This document shows positions 7,273 to 62,641 of a DNA stretch of 64,000 nt, piece after piece. This DNA comes from Raillietiella orientalis (Eukaryota): positions 2,790,001 through 2,854,000 of the forward strand of contig JAYWIR010000026.1 of assembly GCA_036172245.1 (NCBI GenBank), in the 5' to 3' direction. A program made the translations under genes and the position numbers. The notes under the pieces were generated by a model. The model was not told the DNA's origin, did no database searches, and saw only the letters and a program-made list of their open reading frames with translations. Each line of letters begins with the position of its first letter. Positions within the stretch are counted from its first letter, which is position 1.

Positions 7273-8112
7273 CGATGGTGGTGGCCAAAGTATTTGGAAG
7301 ACATAGCGGTCGGAGCACCTCTTTTTCAGGTGGTCCGATGTATTGCAGAAGCCTGAATATTTCGTCTTCCCTATATACCATAGTCGACCGTTTCGCCGGC
7401 AACCACCAGTTTGTGGGGAAGAGAACAGCCCTCCCGGACGGTGACACATGCACCCGTAAGGCCGCATTGCATTCCAGTGTAGTCCACAAAGATACTAGGT
7501 TTGGACCACATTGCACGGACCGTCCCGTGTTGATCCAACGAGGGGCGTACGCTTTCACGACGCATGCGCGCTGTCACACCTAACAGGTGGACTACCATAC
7601 TGCTGTCCACCGTAATGGGAAGGAGTCTGCGTGTCCCCATCACCATGGAGGTTTGGAGCAGACTCTGGGCCAGATCTGCTGTTTGCAGATCACATCCACG
7701 TACTGCCATCCACTGCGGATGGTCAGAGCGCTGAGCTCCTCCTCTTTTACATTGAGAGCGCGCATCCCTTTCGAGAATAAGCGCGCGCTCTCGGAACAAT
7801 ACAGATTGCCTACCTTGTAGAGTAGTGTGAGGTAACACCCTCCTCCACGTAGGCAGATAATTCCGCCGCGGCTGCAGGCGATGGAGCCGCCACGACGGCG
7901 CTTCACGTCCACGCTGCAGCGGGGACCGATTCTGTGGGGGCGGATGCCCCAACCTTCATCATCTCTGGGGGCGACGTTGCCGCCGCCACCTGGCACTCAC
8001 TGGTGGTCGTGTCTGGCATCGCTTCCTGAGCGACCACCGAACCACCCGAAGCTTACACTCAAAGAGGGTTCCTGGCACGAGGAGCACTGAGAAAAGACGT
8101 GCGCCATGCGCG
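7273..8112 (-). mobile_element. Family B LINE 5' end and ORF1 (gag-like), decayed
   Basis: Reverse-complement match to 47310-48150 and 58643-59480 (LYKVGNLY..ESAR.FSKGMRAL, VREGCSLPHKLVV, FCNTSDHLKKRC). Confidence 0.9.
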
Positions 8113-10167
8113 CATAAGGCGGTCGGTTGCATCGGCCAGATCCTGCTAGAGCTTCTGAAACGCTTGGGCTTCCCAGGATTTTCAATGGTTTTTCTTTGCT
8201 CTTGCTGGCGCGAAGCGCTAACGAGCGTGTCGTTTGGAGAAAGAAACGTGTTCTATGTGCCGGTGCGCCGCGGGATGCGGCAGGGTGAGTCCCTTGCTAT
8301 TTCGAGCTGGTGCTGAGGGCGTACAAGGCGACTCTAACTCGCCTGCCGCGCATGTGCCCAGGTACACAGGCCGTGGCGTGGTATGCGGAGGATCTTCTGA
8401 TGCTGCTTCATATGTCTACCCCGGCGTCGGTGTTTGAATACTTTTTCGAGCTGCTGCGTCGCAAGACAGGTCTGGAGGTGAGCAGAGCTAAATCGTCCTT
8501 GTTTGCACTCGTTTCGTTGTGGGCAGGACAGCAGAACTGGTTTCTCTTGGGGATCCCCACGCTGCATTACTTCAAGTACCTATTATGCCGTTGGGGGAAT
8601 ACTCTCAGGCGGAGGTGTGTTCTTGCTGCCTCCTGAAGAACGAGAAGGCGATCAGCGAATTCCTGGATTGAGAGTTTTTCTTGCCTAGACGGACCGTGGT
8701 GTGGAACACGTTCGTGGCCCCCCTTTTTCCCACTTGCTTTTTGTTTGCTCCTCACTCTGCGGTGTGAAGAGGAGGACGAAGGACCTCCTGAGGATCGCTC
8801 TTTGGGGCAGAGGAAAGCCCCGAGCATGTCTAAAGGACCTCCGTGCTCCGCATCGTGATGGAGACCTCGGCCTCCTACCGCTAGAGAGGCTGGAGCTGCA
8901 GCTGCAGTTCATGATGCTAGCCCTAGTGGCGCAGTTGTGGAGCATCAGCAGGAGCGAGCCAGCGGCTGCGTTTCTGCCTACCTGCCTAGCGTGCCCAAAC
9001 GCCGGTAACTGTTCCACTGCGGAATGGCACTTCGGCGAGTGGTCAAGCTGACCAGAATGAACAACTGAATCTCTTGCCGTCCCGTGAACGGCACTTCCTG
9101 GTTGCAGGAAAACCTTCACAAGTGGGCCTGGATTGAGGAACCGAGCCCGGAATTGCGGTAGCGACTGCTGCACTCCTTTTACAACAGCCGCTGGCTGCAG
9201 GACATCATCGTGCAGCCCTCGAGTGCGTGGGTTGATAAAACCTCCTTTTCCGTGGCTCTGCCTTACCTCATGGAGCACCTGGGCAGTAGTCAGCCGGCCA
9301 AGTGGCAGGTCCATTTCAGCATCTTAAGAAGAGAGAAGGAACAAGGTGATTGGACCACGGGCCAGTTGACTGACGCTGAGACCCCAAGTGCCCCACCGAA
9401 GGGACTATTGCGCCGGGGCGAGCTGCTGAGCATCCCACTGGATGTACTCGACTTGTCTCCAGTGCTGAGGAATACCCAGATCCTCTCCCTTAAATGGCAG
9501 GAGTCTGCGTTTCTGGTGTTGCATTGGGGACTCCACAGCAACGCCCGACTATCTCACTTGACGAGGGAAGCTGTGGACCCAAACTATGTCAGGTTTGGGG
9601 AACGGGAATCCCTCCGCACCTGCTTTTTGACTGTGTTGCTTTCCGGCTCGTGTGGTTGCGTTTCGCAACGGCTCTTGCTGCAACTATGAACAGTCCCAGG
9701 GGCGTATTGAAGTGCCTCTTTGTGCGCGACGCCCTTTCGCCTGCCGCAGCCTTGCAGCTCTTTGCTGTCTACGAGGGATTGTGGCGGCCTGGAGCACCGC
9801 CACTGGTAGACCGAACGATAGGGACATCATCTGCTCTTCTCTGCGCTTCCTGAGGACGGCAGTCGGATGGTCCCATCTGGTACGTAAGCGGAATGAACTT
9901 GCCGGCATCCTGAAGAGGATGTAGAGAATGACCCCAGCGAAATGTGATCCCTTCCCCGACCCCTCCCTGCGTTTGTAAATAGTGTTCTCTTCTTTATGTT
10001 TTGATTTGTCCCTTCCCCCTCCGCTGCCGAGTCGAACTCGCCGGCCTGCGCGCTGGCATCTCAGTAATTTCAAAGTTTTTTTTTTGGACGCTGTAGGGGC
10101 AATGGCCCTACACATGCTTGTTTGTTTTTTTCAGAAAAATAAACTCCCCGGCGCACCCGGGTGGGAA
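8113..10167 (+). mobile_element. LINE ORF2 from the HKAFD-like motif to the 3' end, decayed
   Basis: HKAVGCIGQILLELLKRLG, YAED, FKYL, RDGDLGLL.LERLELQLQF and LKWQESAFLVLHWGL. Terminus AATAAACTCCCCGGCGCACCCGGGTG. Confidence 0.9.
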
Positions 10168-11034
10168 CGGAGATGGTGCGGAAACCACGACGCTTCGCTC
10201 TTCGCCGGCGGCGAGGAGGATCCCTAGGGAGTGGGAGCTTCGGATTCTGAGGGGACGGTATCCAAAAATTCAGAAACGTGTTCAGTTAATATGGTGATCA
10301 TAGTGTATGAACCTAAAATACGGCATAGGCAGATTGATTAAAATAATCTAAGCAACATTAAAGGGAAATAACTCTTTCAGGAATAATAGGCACATTATCT
10401 GTTAAAGTGTGTGAACTCCATGCTATAGAATGCAGTAATCCCATTGTGAAGTTAACGAATGTTTCTCAAAAGTAGAAATCTTATAACTGCCTTCACATCC
10501 CTAAATATGCCAACACATTACCATATTTAGTTACATAAAAATCCTTAGTTATACAGATAACATTTCCAGCACATGTTATCACAGATGATACGTTCCATAG
10601 AGAATATCGGTCATATCGACTTTAGAAACCAATTTGCACTTTGCATATGCCAGAAATTAACACCATTCTGACTTCCGGAGAACGTAGAATTGATTCCTGT
10701 AGTACAATTAAGCGCCTAGAATGGACGCTGATTTTGATACTTGATATAGTTTCTGCCTTCAGTCTTCATAAAGAATTCTTAAGAAATAAATGCAGAGATG
10801 ATGAGATGATAAATGCTGTTAGATACTCTGAAAGATTTCAGTGGTTGATTTTATTTCTTGTTCTTTATTCGCACATTTCACTTTTTTATTTCAAACTTTC
10901 TTTTCACTCTTCTATTTCGCAAGCTACACCAAACAACCAGTAGGGCAACACCCTTCGATGCCCATAAGTGGTTTGGACTGTCGTCTAAACATTCTATTCT
11001 GGAAGTAACTAATTGGACATCAACCATTTCTGAA

Positions 11035-12500
11035 ATGGTAAATGGTCAGTAGATCATAAAGAGACTTGCTCGTTTCCGTGGTTACCAACTATATATATTC
11101 CCAGTGAGCCAGAACCGAGAAGCTAGACGTCTAGAGAAAGATTACTTCGGAAAGAAGACTCTACAGAAAATCTGTCAACGTTCCACGTTGCACTACGTCG
11201 ACAAATGGATGGACTCACTCACAGAAGCTTTGCTTTGCTATGACTTCAGATATAAAGATGGATCATTCAGATCAGAAGCAGGTGGAGCAGGTTGTCAGAT
11301 GGCCTCCTCGTCAGTTAGACAGAACCCTTTTTCTACCCAGAAGATGATCTCATTGACAAACGGAGCAGCCACCAAACGCCGACCAGAAGTCCCACGCAAC
11401 AATTTTCTCTGGATACCCTACAATTTTTAAGGGGTAAAAAACTGAAGGAGATGTACTGGAACGCTCTGATAGTGTGACGAACATTCATCATGTGTGGAAT
11501 AACATTGAAAAAGGAAAGAGGTCACTTCCCTATGAGGCAATCTTTTGCAGAGCACAAATCTCTCAAACACAAAACAGGCTGCTTGCTGTCTAAGTCTATG
11601 CTATGGATTGGTTTCGTAAGGAAGCACGCTTCTGCTACATATTGGTCAAATAAATCAAGGGAGGCTTATCGTCATCACCACTAACTATTAATGTGAGATG
11701 GCCACTGGAGGGACAACTACGTCGAAGATATGCTCAACGATTTTCCTGGCGCCTTGGATGCTATTACGGACTGCAGCAAGTTTGAAGCTCTCATTCACAC
11801 ATGACTTTTACGTGATGTCTTTTCCATCCTTGATGAGGAGTATAGACTTTCAGCATGTAGTGGATTCCAGAGGGCTTGTATAGTCAGCCGTGCCTGACCA
11901 GTTACCAGTGATTTTAAAAGCTGGTGACATCTTTTACGGATACATCGGTTCATCTGCCTAATGGCAGGCGTTTTAAGATCGGCGGCGTCCCCTGCAGGTC
12001 AGAGTTCAACAACATAATTGACTCGTTAGTTAATATGATCATCACCAGATCATCATGCTTCAAATGCAATGTTTTTCTTCGCAGTCGTTTATTTCGGTGA
12101 TAATGCAACGATGTGCACGAATGAGATCATAAATCATTATGACTGGTAGGAAGCTGCTTTTGAAAAGTTTGAAATGATCTTGAACGCGAAGAGCTACGAG
12201 ATAAGAAATTAAACTAGTATGCACTTTTTCCTGGGATATTTCAATGTATGAAATCCGTTTAAATCACGAAATTTTGCGATCACATCCTTTATGTTCTCAG
12301 AAGCATATTGGGACGATTCTTTGCTAACAGCATCCCCAGCTCTGGGTCAACTAGAAAGTATACCGAATTCAAATGTTGCAGTACCTTGGCGTTGGATAAT
12401 TCGAAATCTAAGAACAAGAACGACTTATGTGAAGAAGCAATAAGTCCTGCGATGGAGGTCTGAAGATTCCGAATATCTAATTATGATCGGCTGGGATTCT
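11035..12500 (+). pseudogene. Endogenous partitivirus-like RNA-dependent RNA polymerase (non-retroviral EVE) with stops and frameshifts
   Basis: Manual translation gives ordered partitiviral RdRp motifs: SGYP.IFKG*KT.GDVL; CRAQIS..QNRLLAV*VYAMD...EARF (F); EMATGG; TDCSKFEALIHT*LLRDVFSIL (A); FTDTSVHLPNGRRFKIGGVPCRSEFNNIIDSLVNMI (B); YFGDN (C); FEMILNAKSY; HFFLGYFN (E); SFMFSE...ALGQ. Confidence 0.9.
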
Positions 12501-14316
12501 AGAACAATAGGTATTCGAAATGAGGAGTACACTGATACACCGAGTTGACTCCGACCTGATGGCTTGGAAGCGAAATGAGAGTCAGGTGTGCTAAATCGCT
12601 GACCTGATAAAGATTAAAGAATTTGAGCTTTTGTAGAAAGCTACGGTGATGTGCGCCAGAAGTTGCAGTCAAGTGAGTTTTGCAAATGATGGCAAGCAAT
12701 GGTGGAGGCAACAAAAATTTACCTGATACCTATTCTACCACCAGTGCTGCATGATGACATTCTATTACTGATCAATTAGATTTTGTGTTTTTCCAAAACA
12801 CCGAAAAATAATGCGCAATTACATGGTATGGGAAATACATGGCTTCTTGAGAAGAGAGACCAGAAGAAACTATGAATTCCACAGCGACAGTTCATCAAAA
12901 CATTTCAACATAACATATACTGATAAGATACAGCTGGAGACAGTGAGCCCTTCAACTTGATTTTTTTGGTTCTAGGCTCATTCCTCAAGAAAATATCTGA
13001 GAAAAATTCACCTGAGATGTAAATAGGAATCACATGCATGACAACATACTAAACAACAGAAGCCTCAACTAAAAAATCTAGATTGAGGTTAAAGAGTCAT
13101 GTCACTACACTTCTTCAAATGATAGTCACATTACCATCCAAAACACGTGCACTTCATGCAATGGGGTTTGGAAGTCTCATGATTGAATTAGCTGACTTCT
13201 TTCTTAAAACCATGAAACCATTTGTAAATACTTTCACACTCGCTAGCATGACTGCACTCTTAGCCCGAATGCCCACAGAAAAATACCCAGGAATACACAT
13301 GACGGCTTTCCTTGCAGATGTCCTAATAGATGACACGATGTAGAAACGATGGATCCCCCGTACCTTGATATACAATTTCTTCTTCCTATGTAGGAGAATT
13401 TCACATCACTGTGACTGTTCAATAAGGCAGGATCGACTGTTTCAATACAATAAAATGCTTGCAAAAAGCAACCAAGGATTCAGTGCGGAACTAGTTGCTG
13501 CCTTTAGTCTTTGCGAAGATTTCATTACAGTTAGACGCAAAGATCATATGGATTGCAATGCTGTAATAGACGACCTCCACAGGTAAAATTAGTTTCACTG
13601 CTTTCTCTCGTTTTCCCTATCTTTTGTTTATTCTTTTCCAACATACTTTTTTTTTCACCGCCACTTTTTTTGACACCTTTCAATGTTCGAGGACACTAAA
13701 AAGGGAATCCAGAAACATCAAGAAGGAAACAGCCTTCTTGCAATCGCACTCGGAGTCTTTTCCCACGCGCGTGAAAATGGATAGAAGTGCTTCCTGAATT
13801 AATTTAATTTGCTCAGGAAGCACGCAAACTTAGAAAAGCGGGAAGTTCCCAACAGCGATCTAAAGGACACTGGCGTAGGTCGCTTCTTCGCCTTTGAACA
13901 TAAGCGAGAAGCCCATGTGCCTCTGCTCAGGGTTCTTGCTTGCGATCTTCTCCCATCAGCTGGTGAAGAATGAAGTACCAATAATCGCTTCCTTGTGTCT
14001 CCTTTTTTCATCGCCATCATGTGATTTTATTCATAGTTCATAGAAAATGGCAACTGGTTTTCCGCATAATAAACGGTTTGTACTATAACTTCCTGATCTC
14101 ACGGTGGACGTCCAGATGAGAATTACTACGAGTAGTCATGTATCTCTGCCAGAGAGTCAGAAGTTGCGGACTTCGACTCTAGGACGACTTCCGAAGAAGC
14201 ACCAGTTCATATATGCTGCGAAATGGACAATGCACATCCAGTGAGATACTTATGAGATTAAACCCATACTTCGAAAAAAATGCTACGCGATACTGGCCTT
14301 CAATGATGAGATTACC

Positions 14317-15703
14317 TCTATTACATCCGGATATGCCAGGGCATTTATTTTTGAAAAATAAAAATACACTCAATTTTCGCGTGGCGAACCCAAAGGCTCA
14401 CAGCTTGCTGCTTGCCGGTGCTGGGCCGGAGAGGTCCAATCGACGCGCAGGGATGGGCATAAAAAACAAAAGAAACAAAAAGTTCAAACGTGGGAGGGCA
14501 CTAATGTTTTGGGGATGGGAGGGCGGGGAAGGGATCACAGTGCGCGCGGAGAGGTCCTCTAGATCCTGTTCAGGATCCTCACAAGCTGCGTCCTATCTGC
14601 GCCCCAATAGCGCCACTTGAAGATGTTCCTTACAAAAAGGCGGGTCCAATGTAAGGCGTTGCTGCTGACCTGACTCCTGGTGGTGTTCCAAGCCACCACG
14701 ATCCCTCGAATGCATCAGCGAACTGCTACACTAGCGGATGGGACAAAGCGTCACGAGAGAAGTGCCGCCTAAAAACGTCCTTAGGGGCGCCTCCGCGAAT
14801 GGCAATGATCGCCGCAAGACGATCCCAGAGAGGGCGGATGGCACTGCATTCTACATGAAGGTGGGGGAATGTCTCTTTTTCCTCGCACCGGTCGCACTGG
14901 GAATCCACAGCCCGCCGTGTCCAGTGAGAGAGGCGTGCTTTGCAGGGTAAATTTCAATGCAAGACAAGCAACGCCGCCTTCTGCCATTTCAAGGGGAGGT
15001 AGCCACTGTTCCGGGACGCTGAGGGCCACTTCATCTCCTCCGGAGATAGTCCGAGTAGCTCGCCCCAGCGTCGAATTCCGTTGGGCGGGACACTCGGCGT
15101 CGCAGCATCCGCTAGCTGCCGAGATGTCTACGCCTTGATCAGTTGTGTCCTGCCGTCAATAGTGCAGGATACTGTTCATTTCCCCTGCTCGCTGCTGTCC
15201 CTAGAATCCACAAGAAAGGGTAGCACTGGGGCAAGGGGAGTAATCAGAGCCCACAGAAGCTGGTCGTGGGACTGCACGATCTCCTGCAGTGTCCAGCGGG
15301 CGTGCCTTTTCAGGCAAGTGTTCTTTGTGCCCACCGAAACGTAGATCTTTTCCCACGTAAAGACTGACTCGTGTAGCCATGCAGAGTAGCTCCCGGGGAG
15401 GCAGGAGATCCAGGCGTTCTCCCGAACCACGACGACTATGCGACGCAAGTGAAAGCCGCAGTGTGCTTGTCTGCGGTCGCGCGCCAAAAAAAACGACGAA
15501 AGTCCGCCATATCCCGAGGCTCGTTGGGCCAGGAGGCGTGCTGCAACGCACCAGGGCGTGTCCTACAGTTCCGCCGCAAGGGCGAGAGTCCTGAATCGAA
15601 GTTGCAATTTCATGCGCTCCAGCGTAAGTAGGCCAAGTCCGCCGTCCTAACGTGGTGCTCACAAGTCTTTAAGACGCACACGGGACTGAGAGATGAGATT
15701 CCC
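14317..15703 (-). mobile_element. 5'-truncated LINE with a 13-bp target-site duplication
   Basis: C-terminal CDRCEEKETFPHLHVEC and AWISCLPGSYSAWLHESV. 3' terminal motif at 14317-14350. TGATGAGATTACC at 14304-14316 and 15704-15716. Confidence 0.9.
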
Positions 15704-43114: not shown

Positions 43115-45230
43115 GTTGGAAAGCTTTCTTTTCGTGCTTGTGAGCATGCGGTACATCGTCGGTGTCCCATAACAGCGATGCCTGAGGACACCGCGATAGA
43201 AATCGGGAGTACAGAGATGCTAGCACCTCTCCTCAGCCCACGGAGGACTAGGCGACCGCCTCCATGGAAGCAAGAACAACCTCCTGCTTGGAAAAGGGGG
43301 CAACCGTTCCCTCTCAGCCGTCTTCGCCCACGATGAGGACCTGCAGCGCCGTGGCTGAAGCACCATCCGCTGCTGCCATGGCCGAACAAGCCGCATAAAA
43401 GGAGCAAGGATATAAGCCGTCCTTAATCTATAAGGTAGGCAATATCTTTGTTGGCAATACCGCTCGCAACTTCGAAAGGGAGCTGCAGCAGCTTAACGTA
43501 AAGGAGGAAGAGCTGGAAGGTCTTTCCGTTGTCAGTGGGAGTCAGCGGGTGGAGTTGACTTGCAAGGATGCAAGCCTGGCTCAACGGCTGTTAAATACCC
43601 CCATTACGTAGAAAGGCAGAAAGCTCTTCCTGGTAACTGAAGACCGCTCCGTAATCGTGCACCTCACTGGAGTCATCCTCATGTCAAAAACTGTCGTTCA
43701 ATAGGAACTCAGCGAATACGGCACAGTATGCACACGCTCTAAACCAAGTTAAACGCTTTTCAAACCTATGAAGGGCTCTTCAGTGGCATGGTCGCAGCCC
43801 ATGTAATCCTCCACGAGAAAAGTGAGCTTCCCCACAAGCTGTACATTGGCAACCAGACGGTCGATGTATGCTACGTGGGCAAACGCAAGTTCTGTGGACA
43901 ATGTGATGCCACAGGCACCTGAAGCAACGGTGCGCTTAGATCCAGTGCTTCCTCTGAGGAACAAAGAGCTACCTCCATAAAGTGTGCTGAAAGCAAGAAA
44001 CTACGGCTAGCCCAGCTTTGAAAAAAGACAAAAGGAGACACGCGCAGCAAACGAAGAAACCCAAATAGGCATCAGAAAGGCGAACACAGAAGCCAGAGGC
44101 AGAACCCTCCCAGCAAACGTAGGTTTAGAAAACTCCCGACGACGCTGGTGAGAACGAGGGCTGGCGAACGGTGAAGCCAAAGAAACCAACGAAAACCAAA
44201 GGCCCAAAAGCGGAGCCAGCGGCAAATCCTCTGAATAGGAGACAGCGCCGCACATTACTCCGCGAATGCTCGGTCACTTTGGAGCGCGTGGGGGCCTTAG
44301 AGGCCGCCACCGGGGGAGATAACCACTGCCTCTTTTGTGTCCAAGCCGCAATTCCCGAAAGCGAAACCTCTGTGCAAACAGAGGGGGAACCATGAGACCC
44401 ACTCGCCTTAATCGAGGACGCAACCTCCGAACAGGCGGCGGAAGAGCTCGCGGCTAAACTCGTCGGCCGTGGGAACGCGCCGCGAAAGACCTTGAGAAGG
44501 CCGGCCGCGACGAAGGCACCTCAGACAGGGGAGCAGGATCCGGATGCCGGTAGAGCGCCCTCCTCTGTGGAGGCTTCTCCTAAAAAGACAGGACGGAAGT
44601 CGAAGAATCCGAGGAGGCGCATCCCGACGAAGAAGGAGGGGGACGCACCGGTAGCCTAGGGAAAAGCCGGCAGCGTGGGAACGGATGAAGGGAATTTCCC
44701 ACTCTCCGCTTCCGAGCAGCTGGCCACACCCATGGAACAGGGAGAGCGGTTAGGTGACTCCCTCCCCCTTCCAGCGATCGGCCCTGCGGACGAGGCGACA
44801 GCAATGGATTTGCGGGAGACGATACGTCATAGCCAGCCCCCTGTCGACCTGTACAGCCGACGAATCGGCCACAATGGAAGAGGGGGAGCAGGTGCGTGAT
44901 ACCCGTCCCCTTCCACCGATGCGGAATGCAGAGGAATAGTCCCCCATGAAGGAGGGAGAAACGGAGCGCTATGCTCTTCCCCCTCCTCCATCCGCCCCGC
45001 CCGACCAGGTGGCGAGAGCCCCATTGCCACTTTCCCGAGAATAACACCTTGGCTTGCCTATCGCCGTCGATTGCGGGTGGCCTGTTGGAACTCAGCGGGC
45101 TGCGCGACGAAGGCAACAGACGAGATACGTCCGACACCCTGCGTGAGTTCGAACCGGCCCTGCTGCAGGGGACCCACGTGATCTCCGCGGCAGACGTCCA
45201 GGAGATCGAGACGATCGCAAGAGGTCAGCT
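43115..45230 (+). mobile_element. Family D LINE 5' part (ORF1 and endonuclease start), decayed
   Basis: Collinear with 60036-62030. Contains LLRECSVTLER, ACWN.SGLRD and HVISAADVQEIETIA. Confidence 0.88.
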
Positions 45231-47309: not shown

Positions 47310-48669
47310 TGCTACAGGATGGACGTGTTTTCTCGGTGCTCCTCGTGCCAGGAAGTCTCCCCCAGTGCAAGCAACGTGTGGTTCCGTGGTCGATCAGGCA
47401 GCGATGCCTGACGCGAGCACCAGGGATGGCCAGGGGGTAGCGGAAACGCCGCCCTCAGAGGCGATGGAGGTGGGGGCATCCGCCCCCACAGAATCGGTTC
47501 CCGCTGCAGCGCGGGCGTGGAGCGCCGTTGTGTAGGCGCCATCGCCTGCAGCCGCGGCGGAATTGTCGGCCTATGTAGAGGAGGGGTACAACCCCTCATT
47601 GTCCTACAAGGTAGGCAATCCTTATTCTTTAGAGAGCGCGCGCGCCTTTTCGAAGATCATGCGCGCTCTCGATGTGAAAGAGGAGGAGCTCAGCGGTATG
47701 ACCATCCGCAGCGGGGGTCAGTACGTTGAGCTCATCTGCAAACATGCAGAGCTGGCGCAGCGACTGCTGAAAACCCCCGTTGTGATGGGGACGCGTAGGC
47801 TCCTCCCCACTACGGCGGACCGCAGCATGGTGGTCCACCTGTTAGGCGTAACCGCGCGAATGCGCAAAGAACAGGTTCGCGCCGCTCTGGAACAGTTCGG
47901 AACGGTCCACGCGCAGTGGACGAAAGTTAGTCCTTTCGAGGACTACAGGATGCTGCAACACGGCTCCACGGCTGCGCGCGTGACCGTTCGGGAGGGCTGC
48001 ACCCTACCCCACAAACTGGTGTTCGAAGGCGAAACCGTCGACCTCTGGTATGCGGGGAAGCCGAAATACTGTGGCTTCTGCAATACGTCGGGCCACCTCA
48101 AAAAGAGGTCTCCCAATGTGCAGTGCCAAGTATACGGAACCATAGGACACACGAGGGAGGTGTGCTCTAAAGCAGCAGTGCGGGTGGTTTCCAAGAGAAA
48201 CCTTCAAAAACGTGCCCGGCTTCTGCAGAAAAGGCTGGCGTCGAAAGCTGCCGCGAAGGCTGTGCCACCCGCGCCCAAGGCCCAGGCCGCACCAGAAACC
48301 CCGGCAAACAACGCCGAACAAGTGGAGAGAACAAGCCAGGAGCTTGGGTGGCAGGTGGCTACGGCCAAAAAATCAAAGAAGGAGAGGAGGATGAAGAAAA
48401 AGCTCGCGTACCGCCACAAAAAACAGCAGGCAAGCGAGCAAATTGAAGAATGCAGCGTTGTCGTTTATTACCCGGTTGCGCCGGGACGTTTATTAAAATA
48501 TCAACTGAGAACTGTGTTCCCAGGCAAGGGAAACAGAAAATGGGAAGTAGATTTCCCGGAACGCAGTCCGGGCACACTGAGAGTTCGGAACGGGAGGGGG
48601 TAAGACAATAAATAAATAAACTGGGTGGGAGGGCGGGGACAGGGGTATACAGTCTAACCGTTCCTATTC

Positions 48670-51600
48670 TCAGAACCGGCGGTGAATGCCGCCTATCTCC
48701 GTCCTCACTTCTGCTCTATGATGTGGCCACCCGGCAGCCATTTGCAGGTTGCAGGCTGCGGTGTCGGAGACCGATGTTGGGTCTGCTCGCATTTGCAATA
48801 CGTGGCGGGCCCTGACAATGGCGCGGACGCAGCAGATGATTGCGACGACCGCTCCAAGAGAAAGATGCCACGCGTGTAGAAGCGGCGCATCCAATCCAGT
48901 GCGGTGTGTCCAGGGTGCAGGAGCGCTGAAGACAGCCGCTGCCACAGCTCCTGCAGGGCACCGCACTCAAACAGCAAATCCGGAAGCGATTCCACCGCTC
49001 CGCATTTGGCACAGTTCGGGGACGCAACTCCCCCGGATATCAGGTGCGCCCGCTGGTTACAGTACAAACCCCAATGCACCAGCAGAAAAGCGTCCTGCTT
49101 CCACAGAAGGGGGAAGGGAGTCGCGTCCAAACACGCAGAAGGGACCCCAAGTTCATCGCAGGGCACCCCGAGGAGCTCACTCCACCGGAGAAGCCCCTTT
49201 GCAAGAATGCGAGGTGTGGCAGCGTCTGCCACTTCGCAAGTCCGCCAGCCTCCTAGCAGTCGGGTTTCGCATGCGATTTCGCAAGTGATCTCCCACCTCG
49301 CCGGCAGGTCACTGTCATCTCGCACCATCAGTGCACACAGTGCTTCGGCGACTGGCGTAGCGGCTAGGCGTGTCCACTGGTCCTGGTCTTCCAGCACCTC
49401 CCCCAATGGACAGTATGGGGAAATGTTAACGCAACGGAGTTCCAAACGGGACACATCCTGTTGCGCTGCCCAGGACGATAAGGCTTCCTGCCTCAGGGCG
49501 TTGAAGTTCGTCGGCCGGCAGGAGATCCACTCATGCTTTCCCAGAAGCGCGGTGAGCTGCTTCAAAGGGAAGCCGAATCCTCTCTGGGCGCGCTCCGTGC
49601 GCAGATGCAACGAACGTAGTCCGTCGCCACCCGTGCAGCGCCGCAGCAGCAGCAGCGCTGGAGCACACCAGGGAGTAGTCCAGAGCTGCGCACAAAGTGC
49701 CAGCATGCGGAACTGCACTAGCAGTCCGATCCGCTCCAGCGTCAGGATGCCCAATCCTGCATCCCGCCAAGGAGCCGCCAAGTCCTTCAGGCGTATCCTA
49801 GACCTCGCCGGTCCCCACAGGGCGTTACGCAACAGGCGCTGCTCCCGGCGCTTAGAAGAGTAGGGACGGGGACAAACAAAAAAGAGGGAACGGAGGAGGG
49901 GGGCAACGAAAATGTTCCACACGAAGGCCCGTTCCGACAGGAGAAACCTGCCGCCTTGGAACGGGCCCAGAGCAGTCTCGGCCTTGTGAAGGCAGTCCGA
50001 CTACGCTTCTGCTGGACAGGAGGCGCCAAAGGGAACGTCGAGGTACTTCAAGCACCTGCCCGTGGGGATCCCCAGGCGGATCCAGTAGGACTGCCCCTCC
50101 CACGTAGAGCCAACCGGTACAACGGTTGATTTCGTCCTGTGGACACTCAGGCCCGCTCTCCGACGAAAGAGCTCCAAGAAGTCTTCTAGCCTGGACGCCA
50201 AGGTGGACATGGGCAGAAGCAAGAAAAGGTCGTCATCATAGCCGGCCACGGCCGGTGTTCCCGGGCAGGAGCTTGGCAGGTTGGCCAGCGTCAGCCTGTA
50301 CGCCCTCAGCACCAACTCAAAGAAGATGCTGAAGAGCAGGGGGCTTAAGCTGTCTCCTTGCCTGGTACCCCGCCGTATGGGAACACCGTACACGTGACGC
50401 CCGCTGAAAGAGATACAGCATAACGCGTAGCGCTAGCAGGAGCGCAAGTTGGCGATGAGGTGCGTCGGAAGGCATAGATGTCCCAGAAGCTCCAGAAGGA
50501 GGTCCTGGTTTACGCTGTCGAACGCTTTGCACAGATCGACGGCGACCGCTAAGGCTCCCGGCGTTCCATCTTGTCTTGAACATCGCCGCTTTCCTTTGCC
50601 AGCGGCGATTTCGGCTGCCTGGCTCTGCTGCGCCACGCGCTGCTGCAACTCGAACCATGTTCGCGCGAAGAAGAGATTCGCGTCCATGGACCGCACCGGA
50701 ACAGCATACGTCTGCTCCGGACTTACCAAGGACTCTGCGATTCTCCCCAGGCGCGCGACCCATAGCCTGGAGTACAACTTGACGTCCGAATTCACCAATG
50801 TGATCGGACGCCAGTTGCTGAGGTGGCGCAAATCATCGCCTTTTGGCAGGAGCCGCACCTTTGCTGAGCGGAAAGAAGCGGGAACATCTGCCGTCTCACG
50901 CATCAGTGAGGAAAGGCTTGGCACCAGGGGGACGAGCTCCGCCGCGAAGCACTGAAAGAACTCCGCGTGCAGGCCATCCTCCTCAGGCGCCTTACGCCTC
51001 TCCAGGCCCGCTATGGGAAAAGATACTTCTTCCGCCGTGAAGGGCCAATCCAATCTGGCGCGTTCCTCCTCGTCGATAGCAGGGTTGCCTGTCGGAAGAA
51101 GCAGCTCGGAGAGACTGCGTTCCGTGGGCTCCTCCGCGTACAACGAGGAGTCGTAGCGCTTGACTACGCTGTGTACTTCGGCTGCAGCCGAGCATTCGTG
51201 GCCAGCGTCATCGAGCAGACAAGCCGCTCCAGACTGCCAAACCTGGCGCTCGGCCCTGGCCTTATACTCCGCCAGACGCCGGACGTCCGGGCATCGTGAA
51301 AAGGTACGCGCCTGCAGATAGGATCTGCTGTTGGCGACACCCTCCCGGAAGCCGCGGGGAAGCAGGTGCAAGGAAAACCGGCAGCAGAACTCGCGGACCG
51401 ATCTTTTCAGATCGTCCCAGTCCTCGAGTTCACAGATGGCGAAGCCCCGGAGGTGTTGGCGGAGATGCTCCGCCGCCTCCGAATTGCAAAGCCAGTCGGC
51501 CGGCAATCTCCAGACATTCATCGGAGGCCCTTTGCCAGGCGGGAGGAGCTCGAAATCCAGTCTAGGATGATCCGAAATCGCGGACAGCAGGCGTCCTCTC

Positions 51601-52232
51601 CGACCTACTCGTGAGAGCAGGTGTTCATCGAGGAACGCATGGTCCGGCGATCTCTCCATCCCGGGCTCACCAGCAAGCAAGTTTTGCACGCGCACGGACG
51701 CGCATACCTCGCTCACCAGTTGCTTCTCCCTCAAGCGGCATCTCTCCTCTGTTAGCAGGTGGACGTTGAAGTCTCCTGCAAGGAGGTGCGCCACGTTAGG
51801 GCCGGAGTCAGCGAGCCAGCGGCTGCGCAGGCCACCCAGGAATGCAAGTCGCTGGGCGCAATGCCGGCCTCCCCTCGGCGCGTAGATGTTCGTAACGACC
51901 AGGTCGATCGATTCGGACCACTTGAGGACAAGTTGGCCCACACGACCTTCCTCGTCGAAACAAACGTTCCGCACCGCCTCCGCCACCCTGCCTCGGACGA
52001 GGAACGCGACTCCGCACGTGTGCGCGGTGCCTTGCCGCCAGTGTAGCGCCCCGCCCGCGCGCTCTTCCAGATCCGATGCCTGCCTTACGGAAATGCTATG
52101 TATCTCCTGCAGCAGCACCAGATCGAACGCGCGCAAAGCGTTGGCTCCCGTCCGCCTTTTGTCAGCATCACGTAGCCCGTTGACATTCCAACAGGCCACG
52201 CTGACGCGACGAGCGGACGCGAGTCCACGCAT
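48670..52232 (-). pseudogene. Family A ORF2 (APE endonuclease, reverse transcriptase, C-terminal Cys/His motif), with few in-frame stops/frameshifts
   Basis: WNVNGL, LQEIH, NIYAP, GDFN, SDH; NWRPITLVNSDVK, VDLCKAFDSV, GTRQGDSLSP, YDDD, KYL; CAKCGAVESLPDLLFEC. Confidence 0.93.
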
Positions 52233-54175
52233 CACTGCTGCGGACATGACGGCGTGCTCCTCGCCCCGTCCGGCGAGAAGTCAGCTGGTAGGAGAGCGGA
52301 TTGGGAAGCGGAATCGCTCCCGTTCGCCGCCACATCGCGCCCAGCTGAGTCCTGGGAGCCGAGGATCATCGCCTCGGTCTCCGTGCAGGAGCCGGAACCG
52401 CCTCCGGCAACAGGCTCGTGCTTTCGCACTTTAGCCCGGCGCGCTACCGGCTTACCCCGGGATGCGCGCTCCATTTGTTTGCACTCGGACTCCACCTCGG
52501 AGTCCGAGTGCCTGGCGCGAGACTGGCGTTTTGCCAGTCTCTTTTTGTTTCGGCAGGTGGAGGCTTGCCCTGCCCGCGCGGGGGTCGTCGCAGTTGCCAA
52601 CGCAGCTTCCGGAGCTTTGGCTTCCGCAGCCGCTCTCTCGCGCGAAGCGACGGAGACAGAGCACGCAGCCGTAGTGCGTACCTGGGTACGCACCTTCTTC
52701 GGCGTGCTTCTCTTTTGCCTCCCACCTACTTTAAGGATGGGGAATATTGAAGGGTCAACCTTCTTCTTCCCCTTTGTGGGCGTCCTGGAGACTCGAGTCC
52801 AGCCCGCGTCGGGGACGCCCTCCTGGCAGGCCGACGCCTCCCTCAATTGTTTGGCCGGAGATGCCGGCTCACGTTTCGCGCTCGCGGCGGGAGACGGCTC
52901 CGTCCCCGTTACGCACTGCACCTGCTCCTTAGCCGATGCGGGCGAAACGGCGGTCATTGCCGTCGTCCCGCGAGGCGCTATTGCAGCCTTCGCTGCTCGT
53001 GCCTTCGGCGTGGAAGACGTGATCTCCACCGCCGTAGGAGGAGACTGCCGTTCAGAGGCATCTCCGAGGGTACCCGCGCACGGTTTCCCGTGTGCTGCGC
53101 TGGACGCGCAAGCGGACGCGGACGGTTCAGCAGCCTTGATTGAGTGTGTGCCCGCACTCTTAGGCTGCTTCGAAGGGGGCGATTTGCCCCCAGGGCGACG
53201 TGGCGTCTTTCCCATCTGCGCGGTTCTCTGGGATGGTGGCTTTCCTGAAGCAACCGCGCCCTTTTTCGCAGGACCGCCACTCGAAGATGATCCGCCCTTT
53301 GCGCTTGATTTCTACCGTGGCACAACGGGGGATCTTTTCGGCGCGGACGGGGTAGATTGTTGGCGGCCTTTCGCCTGCCGCTTCCTCTTCAGCTCGGCGC
53401 ACTCTTTGATGGAGTGGCCGAGCTGTTTACAATAGCGGCAGTTGCGTGAAGGGCACGTCCACGGACGGTGGCCCTCGGCACCGCAAATGCCACAAGCCGG
53501 TCGCTAACCGGCAAATTTAAGGTGGACGATCGCATCGCCCACCTGCAAGTGCGGAGGCATTTGCCTCCTATCCTCCATGGTGACACGCGCCATGGCAAGT
53601 CCGCTGTGGAGAGATGCAATCCTTTTGATCGGATTGTCTGCTCTCCACAGCGCGTGAACCGTGGCGAATGCACTTATGGCAGCAACGAGCACACGATCGG
53701 GCGTGTCCACCTGGACGGCGGATAATCGGACCACGAACGACTGGTTCATGGCCGACGGGACGACCTCCTTCCCGAGGATATTTAGCGGGGTGCGGAGAAG
53801 GCGCTGGACTAGGGATGCCTCCTTGCAGTGCACCTCCCAGTGTCCGAGCGCGTTAACCTGCATGACGGCCAGGAGGTCGTCCTGTCGGACCCCGACGCGC
53901 AAAAGCTCGTCCCACAAATTCTCTCCGACCCCGTCGGAGATCGCAGCACTCACCGGATAGCAGAGCGCAGGCTTGTAGCCATGGGCTGCATATGCCTGCA
54001 GCTCCGCTGCGTCGGGCGGTGCTCTGTTGGCTGCCGCCGCCTTGACGACGGCGGCGAAGCTTCTCGCCGGTGGCGAGACACAAGAATCAGAGGCGGACCG
54101 GACATCTGGAGTAGAGTCTCCACTGCCAGTAGCAGCCGCTACATCCAACTTTTGCTGCAGGGGCTTCGTGGACAT
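52232..54175 (-). pseudogene. Family A ORF1 (gag-like, two CCHC knuckles), with stop/frameshift
   Basis: RSFAAVV, TVHALWR, CGICGAEGHRPWTC and CRYCKQLGHSIKEC, followed by a long A/S/P/K-rich tail. Confidence 0.85.
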
Positions 54176-57100
54176 CCCAGTGGACGCACTCGGGCACACC
54201 ACACACAAGAAGACGGAAAGGAATCACGCTCGTGGAGCAACACAGAACACGTCCGTGCGCCGTCGTAGTGGAGCGTATTCCCGACCGCTGCGAAAAAGAA
54301 TTCACCGCTACCGACGACAACCCCTCTGTTGACTTCGTCAACAGCGAGGGGAGCGAGCCGGCGGCGGCGTCCGTCATCGACATCACCATCGATGACGTAG
54401 CCTTCGCGGGAGCCGCGGAGGAGCTGGCAGCCTCGTTGCAGCCAGAACCCTCCAAGGCTGGCAAGAAGGCCGTAAGGCGCTTGGCCTCCCATCAGGAGTC
54501 CCCCACTACCGACCCCGAGGTGGAGGCCGGAAGCGGAGACTCCGTTTCCACGGCACCGCGCAAGAAGGCTGGACGTAAGTGCACAAAGCCAAGGAAGCTC
54601 GTCTCCCCCGTCGAAGGGAAGGAGATGGCTTCCGCAAGCGAGGGTGCCATGAGCGTGGTAAACTCTCGGGACCCGTCGCCCGAGAGACTCCCACGCGCCG
54701 ACACGGAAGGGATGGAAAGGGTGGAGGCCGAACAGGTGCCTCAGGTGCCTGAGAAGGCCGAAACTTCCATGGACCTTTCGACTGCCTCGCAACAGGAGGG
54801 CTCCCTCACACATTAATCTTCCCAGCAGTAATGCCGGGAATCTCCTCCCGCCGTCGTCTGCGCATCGCCGTTTGGAACGTAAACAACATGACAGACGCCG
54901 GCAGGTGAGGAGACATGGCCGCCCTTCTGAAGTCCTACGAACTTGCGCTGCTGTAGGAGATCCACGTGATCTCTGCAAAACAAGCGCAAGAGATCGAACG
55001 GATCTCCGGAGGGCGGCTGTGGTACAGGTGTGGGAGAGCGAAAAGTTGCGGTGTCCCCTACCTGCTTCGGCCAGCCGTCGAGGCCGCGGCTTGAAACGTG
55101 CGGTTCGACGATCACGGTCTTTTCAGCCAGCTGACTCTCAGGTGGTCCGACTCGATCGATCTGATCGTCACGAACGTGTACGCACCGAGCGGCGCGGACC
55201 TGATGACCAGCAAGGCGATGAAAGAGTTCTTCCTTGCCCTCCGGCGAGACTGGCTGACCGAAGCAAGCGTGCGGAATGCCCATCTGGTTGCAGGCGATTG
55301 CAACGTTTGCCTGAAAGCAGATGGGCAGAATCCCGAGCGTGACCTGGTCAACGAGGTGTGCATGGCAGTGCACACCTGTAATTTGTTGGCCAGTGCACCG
55401 GGGATGGAAGACAGCATTGACCACGTGTTTCTTGACGAGCACCTGTGCTCTCGCGTGGGCAGGCGCGGCAAGTTACCGTGCGAGCTGTCCGACCATCGCC
55501 CGCTAGTCCTCGAGATCCATCTGCGCGACAGGGGCCTGCCCTCGTCAGCGTGGCGTCTCCCAGGGGACTGGCTGAAGCTCCCGGATGCGGCTGAACATCT
55601 CCGCACGTTCATACAGAGCTTCAGGCTGCGGACACTCCAGGATTGGGACCGCTTCAAGCGTTCCGTCAGGAAGTTCTGCGACCAGTTCCCTCTGCGCCGC
55701 CTGCCTACGGGTTTGGGACCGGGGTCCGTAACTAACGAGCCAAACTGCAGGCCCGTCGTTACCCCAGGACCCCCGATATCCGCAGGCTGGCGGAATACAA
55801 AGCGGGAGCCAAGAGGGAAGCCTGGCAGTCCGGATCGGCCAGCTTACTGGACGATCAGGGCCAGGAGCACTCGGCACCTACCCAAATCCGCGGCCTGCTG
55901 CGGAGTTACTACTCCTCCCTGTATGCCAGGGCACCTTCGGAGAGGAACGTCTCACGACTCCTGCTTTCGGAAGGCGCTCCAACGATCGGGGAGGAGCAGA
56001 GAAAGACCCTCGACGAGCCTTTCACGATGGACGAGATCCTCTCGGCCATCGGAAAGCTCAAGAGGCGAAAGGCTTCAAAGGAGGACGGCCTGCCCGTGGA
56101 GTTTTATCAAACCTTCGCGGCTGAGCTTACCCCACTGGTATAGCAACTCACCTTGCTGATACGCGAAACATGGGACGTTCCCGCCTCGTTTCGTTCGGCA
56201 AAGGTGCGGCTCCTCGCTAATGGAGGAGATCTGAGGAGCATGAACAACTGGCGTCTCATCACAATAGTGAATGCGGACGCCAAGTTGCAAGCAAAGGTTT
56301 GGACAGAGCGTCTGGGACGGGTGGCTAACGCCTTCATCAGCCCGGAACAGACATATGCTGTTGCCGGGCGAAGCATGGAGGCGAACCTGTTCCACGCTTT
56401 TACCTGGCTAGAGCTCCAACATGAAAGGAGCTTGGTGCGCAGCCGGAATTAAGGTGCGTGCGCCGGCAAGGGGTTGGATGGTCGGGTGAAGGAGGGAGCC
56501 CTTGCGGTCGCAATCGACTTGCGGAAGGCATTCGATTGCGTCGACCAGAATCTCCTTCTGGAGCTTCTGGAACGCTTGGGCTTCCTCGCCTCATTAGTGG
56601 CCTATCTGCGCTCCTGCTGGTGCAACGAGCTCATCAACGTCACTTGCAGCGGGCAGACCGTGCACGGCGTGCCGGTGGGGCGTGGGATCCGGCAGGGAGA
56701 CAGCCTGAGCCCCTTGCTCTTCATTTCCTACTTTGAGTTGGTACTGAGAGCGTACAGGGGAACTCTGTGGCACCTGCCTCACGACTGTGCCGGTACGCCG
56801 GCCGTTTCAGCGTACGCGGACCACCTTCTGCTGCTGCTCCCCATGTCCACCCCGGCTTCGGCGGTCGAGGAGTTTTTCGACCTGCTGCATCGGGGAACCG
56901 AACTTACGGTGAACAGGGCGAAGTCGTCCGTGATTCCAGTTGGTGCGGCGTGGGAAGGGCAGCAGGGCTGGGTCAGTTTGGGGATCCCCACGGTGAGGTA
57001 CTTCAAGTACCTTGGTGTGCCGTTGAGGGACTACTCCCCTGCAAAAGCGTGGTCCGGCTGCCTCCAAAAAGTAGAGACGGCGATCGGCCCGTTCCGAGGC

Positions 57101-58642
57101 GGCAGGTTTTTCCTGCCTGAACGGGACGCGATTTGGAACACGTTCGCGGCTCCTCTTCTCCGCCCCCTGCATTCTGTTTGCCCCCCCACAGAGAGAATTA
57201 AGAAGCGGACAAAGGACCTTCTCCGTATCGCCATTTGGGGCAACGGGAGGGCCCGAGTCCGCTTAAAGGATTTGTGCGCTCCTCGTCGGGACGGTGGTCT
57301 GGGCCTCCTGACGCTGGAGCTGCTGGAGCTTCAGCTCCAGTTCCGTATGTCGGCAGTTGTTCCAGAGTTGTGGTGCACCTGTTGGTGCGTCCCTGCACGT
57401 CTCCTTTTCCAGCAAGCCACCGGCAAGACGGGACTGAAGTCGTTTGTTGCACTCCGTCGCCGCGTCAACCGATGCGGACTCCAGCTACGGATGGTGGATG
57501 CGCTGTATCGGAAAAACTCAGGATTGCTCACCTGTCTCCCTTTGAACGGTAGTGCCTGGTTGCAGGAAACCGTTCGAACGTTGGGACAGTTCGGCATGCA
57601 ACGCTCCCAACAGGAACGAAGGTTCCTGTTGGGGGGTTACAGTAGTTACACGCTCCGCGAGATCCTGGAGGATCCAATGAAGAGAGCGTGGGCAGGAAGA
57701 ACGCCCCTCGCTCTGAACTGCCCTCCCTGATGACAGATCTGGACAGCGATGTTGCGGCGAAGTGGGAGGCTTCAGTTGCAATCTCCGGAAAGGAGTAGAA
57801 GATAGGAGAGTGGAAGACGAGCCAGTTAACAGACGCTGCGTCCCCGAGTACGCCTCCCAATGGACTTCTGCGCTGGGGCGCGCTGCTCGATGTTCCCATT
57901 GAACATCTGGAGTGGTCCCCGGTGCTCATGAACTCTTCCGCCCTCCCCTTAAAATGGCAGGAGTCGGCTCTCCTGTTGCAGCACTGGGGACTCCCCTGCA
58001 ACGCCCGCCGACAACACTGGACCTGGGGAGCGGTGGATTCCAATTGCGTCAGGTGTGGGGAACGGGAGTCCCTCCCCCACCTGATTGCGGATTGTGCTGC
58101 CCTTCGGCCCCTTTAGTTTCGCTTTGCCGCCGCCATCGGAATCCCCTGCGGCAAACCCAGGGACGCACTGAAAGCCCTCTTCGTTGCCGACGCCCTTCGG
58201 CCAGCGGCCTCATTAGCAGCTTTGTGCTGCCTACGCGGGGTCGTCACCGCTTGGAGCAAGGCTACGTGAGGACAACGTGACCAGGGTGCCATCCAGCCAG
58301 CCTCCCAGTTCCTAAGGAGGGCGTCCCGATGGCCCCACCTGGATCCAGGAAAACAGAAGGAGCTTGTCGGCATCCTGCAAAGGATGCAACGGCCCCACCA
58401 GCAACTGTGATCCCTTCCCTTACCCTCCCAACTTTTCTTTTCTTTTTTGTTTTGTGTTTTGTTTTTCCCCCTTCCCCCTGCTGCCGTGGTGAATCGTACC
58501 GGTCAGCGAACCGGTGACCCGGTAGGCTCTGTGTTTCTTCGTGCGTGGCTGGAGCAATGTTCCAGCCACTCTACGTCTTTGTAAATGTTTGTTTTATAAT
58601 AAACGCCCTAACGAAATCCGGGTGAAAATCGAACGCCTTGTG

Positions 58643-60029: not shown

Positions 60030-62641
60030 GGGTAGTAGAAAAGCGCTTTCTTGAGTGTGGTGTTTTGTGTACATCGTCGGTGTCCAATGGCCACGACGCC
60101 AGAGGACACCGCGATGGAGGTGGGAGTGGGGGAGGCTAGTTCGCCCCCACAGCCTACTGGAGCAGGGGCAGCCGCCCCGGAATCATCCCCGGCCACGCCG
60201 AGGACATGGAGCGCCATGGTGGCCGCGCCCAGCGGAGAAGCCATGGCGGAGATGGCCGCATACAAGGCCTCCGGGTACAAGCCATCGCTTGTCTACCAGG
60301 TAGGCAACTTGTTCGACGGCCGGACAGCGCGCGCCTTCAGCAAAGCGTTGAAGGACGCGAATGTTAATGAGAAGGATCTGGACGGCCTCTCCGTCCTCAG
60401 CGGCGGGCAGCGGGTCGAGGTGGTCTGCAAAGATGTCACCTTGGCTCACCGCCTAATCCATGCGCCGCTGAACGTAGACGGCCGCAAGATCCTGCCAGTA
60501 TCAATGGACCGCGCCGTGGTGGTCCACATGACTGGCATCACCAGCCGCATGACGCGGTCAGCGGTTGGTGAGGAATTAAGAAAGTACGGTGAGGTGCACG
60601 CACTGTGGCCGAAACCCTCCATTTTCGACGGCTTCGATAGCCTTTTTGGTGGGCAGGCTGCAGCGCGGGTCACCGTACGGAAGAATTGTGGGCTTCCCCA
60701 CAAACTACAGGTGGCGCAAGAAAACGTCGACCTGTGGTATGTAGGGAAGCCCCGGTATTGCGGGCATTGTGATGCCGTGGGACACCTACGTAAAAGGTGT
60801 CCCAATATACAATGCCATTTGTGCGAGGAGCGGGGCCACGTTCGGCGCTTGTGCCCCAAACGCCCAACCCCGGTTCCCCCTGCCGCGGAAAAAGCGCAAA
60901 GAAAACGTGCTTCAAAGGTCTCTAGACCTAAAGTAGAAAAGGGCCAGCACAAGCTGCCAACACCTCAACCTCCGGCACGTAAGCCGGAGGATAAACCTTC
61001 TGAAACGGTGGAAGGCGAAGAGGGATGGCAGCTTGTAGAGGCCAGAAAATCAAAGAAACTCCCACCCGCGGAGAGCAAAGAGCGCAAGACGGCCGGTAAG
61101 CCGAAAAAACCCGGTCCGCGCTCGAAAACTCTGCGCGAGTGCACGGTGGCACTAGAACGAATCGTCGTTCCCGAGATTGCCACCCGGAGCGTCGCTCCTC
61201 CCCTTGCCGCTTCCGCTGCGTCCGAGGCTCGCGACGGCGAACCCTCTGTTTACACAGAGGGTGAGCCGCGCGCCATAGCGGCGGTCGAAGCCGCGGACGC
61301 CGCGTTCGCGCAGGCGGCGGAGGAGCTCGCGGTCACGCTGGCCGAGCGTGAGAACCCCTCGCGCAAGGCCGTGCGAAGGCCGGCTCCGGCGAAGAAGGCC
61401 CCAACAGGTGAGTTAGACCTGGGGGCCGGAAGCACATCCTCCTCCTCGGAGGCAACCCCAGGAAGTCGGGACGCAAGTCCCAGAAGCCCAGGAGGCGCCT
61501 CCCCTCCACCAGCGAGGAGGAGAAGACGGAAGCCGTCGCCAGCGTGGGAAATTCGGAGGAGGAAATCCCACGCTCGGAAGCCGTCGATGCGGCCACCCCC
61601 ATGGAGGAGGGTGAACAGGGTAGTGAAGTCCCCCCTGCAGGCGCCGACCCTGAACAGCCCGCCCCCATGGAGGAGGGCGAACAGGTAGGCGCGACTCCAC
61701 CTGCGGGTGATCCGGCCGACGCGCCGGCACCGATGGAGGAGGGGGACCAGGTGCCTTCAGCACCTGACCCCCCTCCTCCACCTAGCGTCCCGCCCCAGAA
61801 GGTGGCGGACGCCACACTGCCGTCTTCCCAGGAGTAACACCTGGGCTCGCCAGTCGCCGTCGGATTCGCGCGGCCTGTTGGAATGTCAACGGGCTGCGCG
61901 ACGACGGTAACAGGCGTGATACAGCCGACAACCTGCGGGAGTTCGACCTGGCCCTGTTGCAGGAGATCCACGTGATCACCGCGGCACACGTCCAGGAGAT
62001 CGAGACGATTGCGGGGTGTCGGCTGTACTGGCAATGCGGCATCCGCAACACCTGCGGGGTCGCGTTCTTCGTGAAGCCGGCCATCGACGCTGCCGTGAAG
62101 GGCGTGCGCTTCGATGACGACGGTCGGGTCGGTCAGCTGACTCTCGGCTGGTACGACTCGATCGATCTGATCGTCACGAATGTGTACGCCCCAACCGGTC
62201 AAAAGGGATACAGCAACCGTACCAGGCTGCTTGAATCCCTGAAGCGCGACTGGCTGGCGAACACGAGCGTGCGGAAGGCTCACCTGATAGCGGGAGATTT
62301 CAATCTCCGCCTGCTAACAGGTGAGCCGGAAACACAAGTGAACGCGATGAACGAGTTGTGCGCCGCCATGCGTGCGCGCAACTTGTTCGCAGGTGAGAGG
62401 GGAATGGTCCGCAGCATCGACCACGTCTTCCTCGACGCTGACCTGTGTTCACCGGTCGGCAAACGGGGGAGGGTTGCGTCAACGTTCTCGGACCATTCCC
62501 GGTTAACTTTTGAGATGCGGCCTCGCGACAAAGGACCGCCATCCAGGGACTGGCGTCTACCCTGGGACTGGACGCGACTCTCAGGTGCGAAGGAACACCT
62601 TCGCGAATACCTGAGAGGCGTCACGCTCCGGAATCTCCATT
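60030..62641 (+). mobile_element. Family D LINE 5' part (ORF1 plus APE endonuclease), cut by the family E insertion
   Basis: ORF1 (see next feature). EN motifs ACWNVNGLRD, LQEIH, TNVYAP, AGDFN, IDHVF and SDH. Confidence 0.93.
60087..61837 (+). CDS. Family D ORF1, gag-like nucleic-acid-binding protein (one frameshift near 61500-61545)
   Basis: MATTPEDT..., RTWSAMVAA, CGHCDAVGHLRKRC, CHLCEERGHVRRLC and an acidic repeat tail. Confidence 0.85.

Follow-up and report, generated by a model that had tools for sequence, protein, structure and literature searches.

How does the gene for the polymerase of a dsRNA virus come to lie in a stretch of DNA packed with retrotransposons, and does it still encode anything? 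The question is raised by positions 11017-12557 (+) of the window (the whole stretch of DNA analysed, 64 kb in length), where a first-pass annotation, made by reading through stops and frameshifts, had seen a near-complete partitivirus-like RdRp. Comparison at the sequence level confirmed that this part of the window, from here on called the element, is a decayed copy of a partiti-like RdRp gene and by descent a member of the family RdRP_1 (PF00680).

Homology and anatomy of the element

The homology became visible with phmmer, using as query the read-through translation of frame 3 (11319-12443, stops written as X) in an exhaustive search of 1.84 billion representative proteins, which gave 22 matches at E ≤ 1e-3 and 4 at E ≤ 1e-10. 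The top match, P0001 (545 amino acids; E = 5.1e-20; query residues 134-363 aligned with target residues 218-451), is according to its source records the RdRp of Beihai barnacle virus 12. When 16 of the phmmer matches were scanned with Pfam, 14 contained PF00680 (E from 1e-29 to 1e-44); the matches P0002 and P0010, both short, showed no Pfam family. A search from P0001 found 205 relatives at E ≤ 1e-5. Among the best 120 of these 205 the named ones are almost all "partiti-like" viruses of invertebrates (Hubei partiti-like viruses, Vera virus, Nanning Parti tick virus 1, brine shrimp partiti-like viruses), and a few names point to fungi or plants. The resemblance to arthropod-associated partiti-like viruses, which had been put forward from motif wording, was borne out in that the nearest named relatives are invertebrate-associated partiti-like viruses. 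The contigs of the relatives of P0001 are 1,616-1,915 nt long among the matches listed. One of the sequences, P0104, goes in its source by the name "putative capsid" of Linepithema humile partiti-like virus 1; it carries PF00680 and aligns as an RdRp, and the name is likely a mislabel in the public record.

Of 137 partiti-like RdRps compared with the 64-kb window by tblastn, 135 matched, all of them on the + strand within 11017-12557 (the extreme coordinates of the alignments), and none matched elsewhere in the window. Similarity can be followed for about 40-60 nt beyond 12500, the end given in the first-pass annotation. The Pfam search of the three single read-through frames returned no family at E ≤ 1, a result that was to be expected and is little informative, because the signal is distributed over three frames and each piece is only 47-153 codons long, and a word-index protein search with read-through frame 3 found no homologue. 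Membership of the RdRp family therefore rests on the relatives and on a family-specific profile. The homology check that had been recommended came out accordingly divided, with no Pfam match on single frames and with matches to RdRps by phmmer, tblastn and the family-specific profile.

This profile was built from 124 relatives of 470-600 amino acids, has 531 positions and was searched against the three forward frames of 10801-12900. It aligned five collinear pieces in three frames, which together score about 211 bits and extend from 11053 to 12536, covering positions 3-497 of the 531 (93%). The 1,484 nt of this path correspond to 495 profile positions, so that the copy has neither introns nor any large insertion or deletion. 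When all six frames of the entire window were scanned with the profile, these five pieces alone came up, and 200 shuffles of 11035-12560 (1200 frames) reached a maximum of 2.1 bits, as compared with 25-72 bits for the real pieces.

Piece 1, the N-terminal region (11053-11457, +, frame 1; positions 3-129; 30.9 bits, i-E 1.6e-11), includes a stretch of 125 codons without a stop (11053-11430 in the list of open reading frames); just ahead of the first aligned position there is an ATG at 11035, followed five codons on by a stop at 11050. Piece 2 (11408-11671, +, frame 2; positions 113-202; 40.9 bits, i-E 1.5e-14; 3 in-frame stops) comprises the fingers and a degenerate motif F at 11549-11605 (+). 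Piece 3 (11715-11855, +, frame 3; positions 218-264; 16.5 bits, i-E 3.9e-07; 1 in-frame stop) contains motif A at 11769-11786 (+) and the LLRDVF stretch, piece 4 (11903-12070, +, frame 2; positions 281-337; 44.6 bits, i-E 1.1e-15; 2 in-frame stops) contains motif B at 11981-12034 (+), and piece 5 (12078-12536, +, frame 3; positions 342-497; 78.1 bits, i-E 8.2e-26; 4 in-frame stops) contains motif C in the form GDN at 12096-12104 (+), motif D at 12189-12197 (+), motif E at 12222-12245 (+) and the thumb. Aligned by hhalign with 18 relatives, piece 5 gave a probability of 99.35% (E = 6.3e-21, 37% identity, 145 columns).

Two short stretches in frame 1 fill gaps between the pieces and are backed by tblastn rows of P0032, P0026 and P0080. 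The first, at 11686-11715 (+), reads E-x3-GG, a motif that the relatives have at profile positions 211-216; it covers the conserved columns 211, 215 and 216, the motif match having been judged by eye, and residues 206-277 of P0032 match 11686-11901 in the same frame. The second, the IDFQHVVDS stretch at 11818-11880 (+), continues the alignment past piece 3 with a weak score (-0.7 bits, i-E 0.062, in hmmsearch), and residues 273-293 of P0080 match it with 47.6% identity. The strings quoted in the first-pass annotation (LLRDVF, IDFQHVVDS, GGVPCRSEFNNIIDSLVN, YFGDN and HFFLGYFN) are all found in translations of the + strand, in different frames and interrupted by stops, and the order F, A, B, C (GDN), D, E that it had described is kept, the motifs lying collinear on the five pieces over a polymerase of nearly full length.

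Partitiviruses belong to the picorna-like class of polymerases. A profile of the 18 relatives matched solved polymerases of caliciviruses and picornaviruses (best 1khv, E = 6.6e-14), and the palm motifs are therefore those of this class; among the best 60 of its 79 structure matches there was no partitivirus RdRp. With the RdRps of the picorna-like supergroup (rabbit haemorrhagic disease virus, 1khv; picornavirus 3Dpol) the element shares the polymerase class, a likeness that is remote and at the level of the family only.

Loss of the reading frame and of the catalytic residues

The claim that the near-complete RdRp is broken by stops and frameshifts held: on the path that covers 93% of the profile positions there are 10 in-frame stops in the 462 codons of the five pieces, and the frame changes at least 4 times, up to 6 times if both short frame-1 stretches are counted. 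The fixed frames of the same stretch contain 17-31 stops per 494 codons, as against 10 per 462 on the homologous path. Among 63 relatives, 65 columns are conserved to 95% or more; the element has a residue at 56 of these, with 35 matches and 21 replacements, and of the other columns 3 fall on a stop and 6 on a gap. Motif A reads D-x4-E instead of the D-x4-D of 63/63 relatives (columns 236 and 241), in motif B three positions that are invariant in 63/63 relatives are replaced (columns 312, 313 and 317), and motif C reads GDN, where 63/63 relatives have GDD (column 350).

To function, an RdRp needs a single open frame and unaltered catalytic residues in motifs A, B and C, and the element has neither. 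Because of the 10 stops, the at least 4 frame changes and the replaced catalytic residues it can be neither a working polymerase nor a replicating virus. It is a dead pseudogene and does nothing as a protein.

Could the breaks be introns or sequencing errors in a domesticated and expressed host RdRp gene, comparable to the intact partitivirus-like RdRPs of Brevipalpus? That such copies exist is documented in the accessible part of the source (PMC13517406), and the first 125 codons of the element (11053-11430) are open. The frame changes, however, lie inside conserved blocks with collinearity kept (1,484 nt for 495 positions), so that no introns are skipped, the stops lie inside aligned conserved stretches, and motifs A, B and C have lost catalytic residues. 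We give this explanation next to no credence, and the domesticated gene was rejected on the breaks inside conserved blocks and the alterations in motifs A, B and C.

How long ago constraint was lost can be estimated in two independent ways. The density of stops implies about 0.145 substitutions per site (95% range 0.07-0.27), and the replaced conserved columns imply 0.20-0.22 substitutions per site; the two estimates, both of them rough, agree, and correspond to roughly 0.15-0.2 substitutions per site since the loss of constraint. Both ignore changes that preceded integration, and a divergent viral lineage could make the age too high; part of the long branch of the element (see below) and of its replaced conserved residues may be older than the integration. 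Typical rates in invertebrates are 1e-9 to 1e-8 per site per year. At such rates the element would be tens of millions of years old, with the proviso that the host's own rate may differ.

Retrotransposon surroundings and route of insertion

The window is packed with non-LTR retrotransposons (LINEs), whose open reading frames carry Exo_endo_phos and RVT_1 domains. By tblastn with the window's own reverse transcriptase reading frames about 20 LINE blocks (APE endonuclease plus reverse transcriptase) were located on both strands, for example at 48705-52277 (-), 54786-58185 (+) and 60039-62640 (+). Their mutual protein identity is 30-80%, and therefore several LINE families or ages have piled up here. 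The region from 44 to 64 kb, with a GC content of 0.58-0.63, consists almost wholly of LINEs. Among 47 further reading frames of the window, Pfam (standard code) found one weak match to RVT_1; Rfam gave 0 matches in the whole 64-kb window. There is also a recurrent family of long reading frames (up to 549 amino acids) without a Pfam domain that always adjoin APE/reverse transcriptase reading frames, at 60039-61685 (+), 47536-48600 (+), 43216-44614 (+) and 7309-7927 (-), and which probably encode the LINE ORF1 protein.

The pseudogene lies in a LINE-free island of lower GC content, 4.5 kb in length (10052-14516), which was delimited by self-blastn, the tblastn map of LINEs and GC. The GC content is 0.345 in the island upstream of the element, 0.42 in the element and 0.407 downstream of it, versus 0.55-0.57 in the LINE flanks. 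The upstream neighbour, at 8116-10051 (+), is the 3' part of a LINE (reverse transcriptase and C-terminal region), recognized by its blastn similarity to 56525-58486 (+), and the downstream neighbour, at 14517-15691 (-), is likewise a LINE 3' part, both with their 3' ends toward the island. An inverted repeat of 60 nt (9907-9967 and 14517-14576, 79% identical, 4.5 kb apart) marks these inward-pointing 3' parts at the edges of the island. The 14 flanking reading frames of the island outside the element gave no Pfam match at or above the gathering score (standard code), with weak sub-threshold matches only.

In the assembly, viral sequence is contiguous with host DNA, the element lying between fragments of LINE families that recur in the window. 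The endogenous status that had been claimed is upheld by this contiguity together with the stops, the frame changes and the replaced catalytic residues. The junctions between element and host are those of the assembly, and the element has about the size of a whole viral segment, as it would if a contig or cDNA of an exogenous partiti-like virus had been misjoined to genomic sequence (assembly chimera or contamination). Against such a misjoining, no virus could replicate with 10 stops in its frame, at least 4 shifts of frame and altered catalytic residues, for which reason a live-virus contaminant was rejected; moreover, the GC content of the element resembles that of the non-LINE flanks, and the character of the sequence is unbroken at the edges of the element. 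We consider a misjoining extremely improbable.

From the viral RdRp ancestry, the near-complete collinear coverage, the loss of frame and catalytic residues and the contiguity with LINEs we conclude that the element is very probably a non-retroviral endogenous viral element (EVE), namely a DNA copy of essentially the whole RdRp segment (dsRNA1) that entered the germline and drifted, unselected, to a non-coding pseudogene. A dsRNA virus has no DNA stage, and reverse transcription by a cellular retroelement is the established route to an EVE; we know of no other route to DNA for such a virus than reverse transcription by a host retroelement. In the mechanism that we propose, an enzyme of a host retroelement would have reverse-transcribed the RNA of a partiti-like virus (the window is rich in LINE reverse transcriptases), the DNA copy of dsRNA1 would have entered the germline of the host, and the copy would then have drifted without selection by about 0.15-0.2 substitutions per site.

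The capture by retroelement machinery that the first-pass annotation had proposed, and which we too infer, would fit the abundance of reverse transcriptases nearby, but the locus itself bears no visible hallmark of retroposition. No run of A or T of 8 or more lies beside the element (within 10,000-14,600 there are only a T10 at 10076 and a T9 at 13647), and a poly(A) tail is accordingly missing, which decay could have erased. At the element itself there is no retroelement junction: the nearest LINE ends at 10051, about 1 kb upstream, and LINE sequence resumes at 14517, about 2 kb downstream and on the opposite strand. An exact direct repeat of 10 nt, with one copy at 10989-10998 (+) and the other at 12757-12766 (+), is a candidate target-site duplication; a shared word of 10 nt or more was reached in 23 of 200 shuffles, and the repeat is not significant. 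Its copies bracket 1,758 nt, which falls in the size class of the whole dsRNA1 segments of the relatives (1,616-1,915 nt among the matches listed).

A further reading makes the element a full-length, end-to-end cDNA of dsRNA1 (1,758 nt between the 10-nt duplications). It would stem from a deep partiti-like lineage that has otherwise gone unsampled, and a LINE enzyme would have placed it in a graveyard of transposons serving as a putative piRNA cluster. This combination is quite unlikely; were it true, the locus would at once preserve an extinct lineage of viruses in a form that can be dated and serve small-RNA defence as a template.

The second part of this combination can also be considered by itself, namely that the fossil is not inert and lies in a putative piRNA-producing, transposon-rich locus, the small RNAs of which could target related partiti-like viruses (EVE-based antiviral memory). 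The accessible parts of four reports document EVEs in piRNA clusters of mosquitoes and ticks and describe arthropod EVEs as often located in such clusters and yielding piRNAs (PMC5497376, PMC7161354, PMC6797480, PMC6580184). The about 20 densely mixed LINE blocks of the window are the usual make-up of a piRNA cluster; they are, however, distributed over both strands and not in a single orientation, and with about 37% protein identity to the nearest virus and heavy decay, nucleotide complementarity to a circulating virus is doubtful. An antiviral memory at this locus is in our judgement unlikely, if less so than the two explanations by misjoining and by domestication, and the inert, unselected EVE is the reading that we follow below.

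Relatives of the virus and other integrated copies

An alignment of 64 rows, fitted to the profile, was used for a quick IQ-TREE analysis (LG+C20+F+G4, SH-aLRT only). In this alignment the element comes closest to Beihai barnacle virus 12 (37.0% identity, 419 columns); the viruses compared with one another have a higher median identity (41%, range 27-84%). In the tree the element fell inside a 61-row ingroup with a support of 100 and, with an SH-aLRT of 94, in a 17-row group, among the members of which are Beihai barnacle virus 12, Beihai partiti-like virus 1 and Hubei partiti-like viruses 9, 10 and 11. The terminal branch of the element measures 2.56 changes per column, six times the median of 0.42, and because this branch is so long the exact sister of the element is unsure. 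The tree left out the classical genera of the Partitiviridae and the ICTV type species, and since no named classical members are among its sequences, the assignment is "partiti-like", with no genus. In the accessible part of another study Beihai barnacle virus 12 was grouped with a gammapartitivirus-like cluster (PMC8623816).

Beihai barnacle virus 12 and its allies (Hubei partiti-like viruses 9, 10 and 11 and Beihai partiti-like virus 1) agree with the element in RdRP_1 family, length class (about 520-560 amino acids) and order of motifs. They are intact genes of RNA viruses, whereas the element consists of DNA, is interrupted by stops and changes of frame, and has had catalytic residues replaced.

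Integrated copies of such genes have precedents. In ant genomes a survey, as far as its accessible part goes, reported Partiti-Picobirna-like EVEs, four of them from partiti-like RdRps, in addition to capsid genes (Flynn and Moreau, 2019, PMC6540820). Like the element these are genomic copies of partiti-like RdRps, in this case in arthropods; the host differs from that of the element. In the mite Brevipalpus yothersi, Partitiviridae-like RdRp genes are likewise integrated in an arthropod genome; according to the accessible part of the report the catalytic motifs are preserved in them, they are expressed, and orthologs occur throughout the genus, which was taken to indicate domestication (PMC13517406). 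In the element, by contrast, both the frame and motifs A, B and C are broken. Partiti-like RdRp EVEs are thus already described in ants and mites, and the element adds another such case.

A further sequence came up among the relatives, P0062, a "hypothetical protein" of 512 amino acids from the leafhopper Homalodisca vitripennis that is encoded on a contig of 818 kb and shares 45% identity with the Beihai barnacle virus 12 RdRp across 92% of the query. Here a partiti-like RdRp EVE that is still intact has probably been annotated as a gene of the host.

The conversion of RNA viruses into DNA copies that subsequently decay is well documented, and the element thus has its value as an entry in a catalogue, unless its small RNAs or loci orthologous to it reveal more. 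What it adds is a record, dated by its decay, of a past encounter in the germline between an invertebrate-type host and a partiti-like dsRNA virus whose nearest relative is 37% identical. Such fossils calibrate the age of associations between viruses and their hosts, and they flag sequences that virome surveys could take for live viruses.
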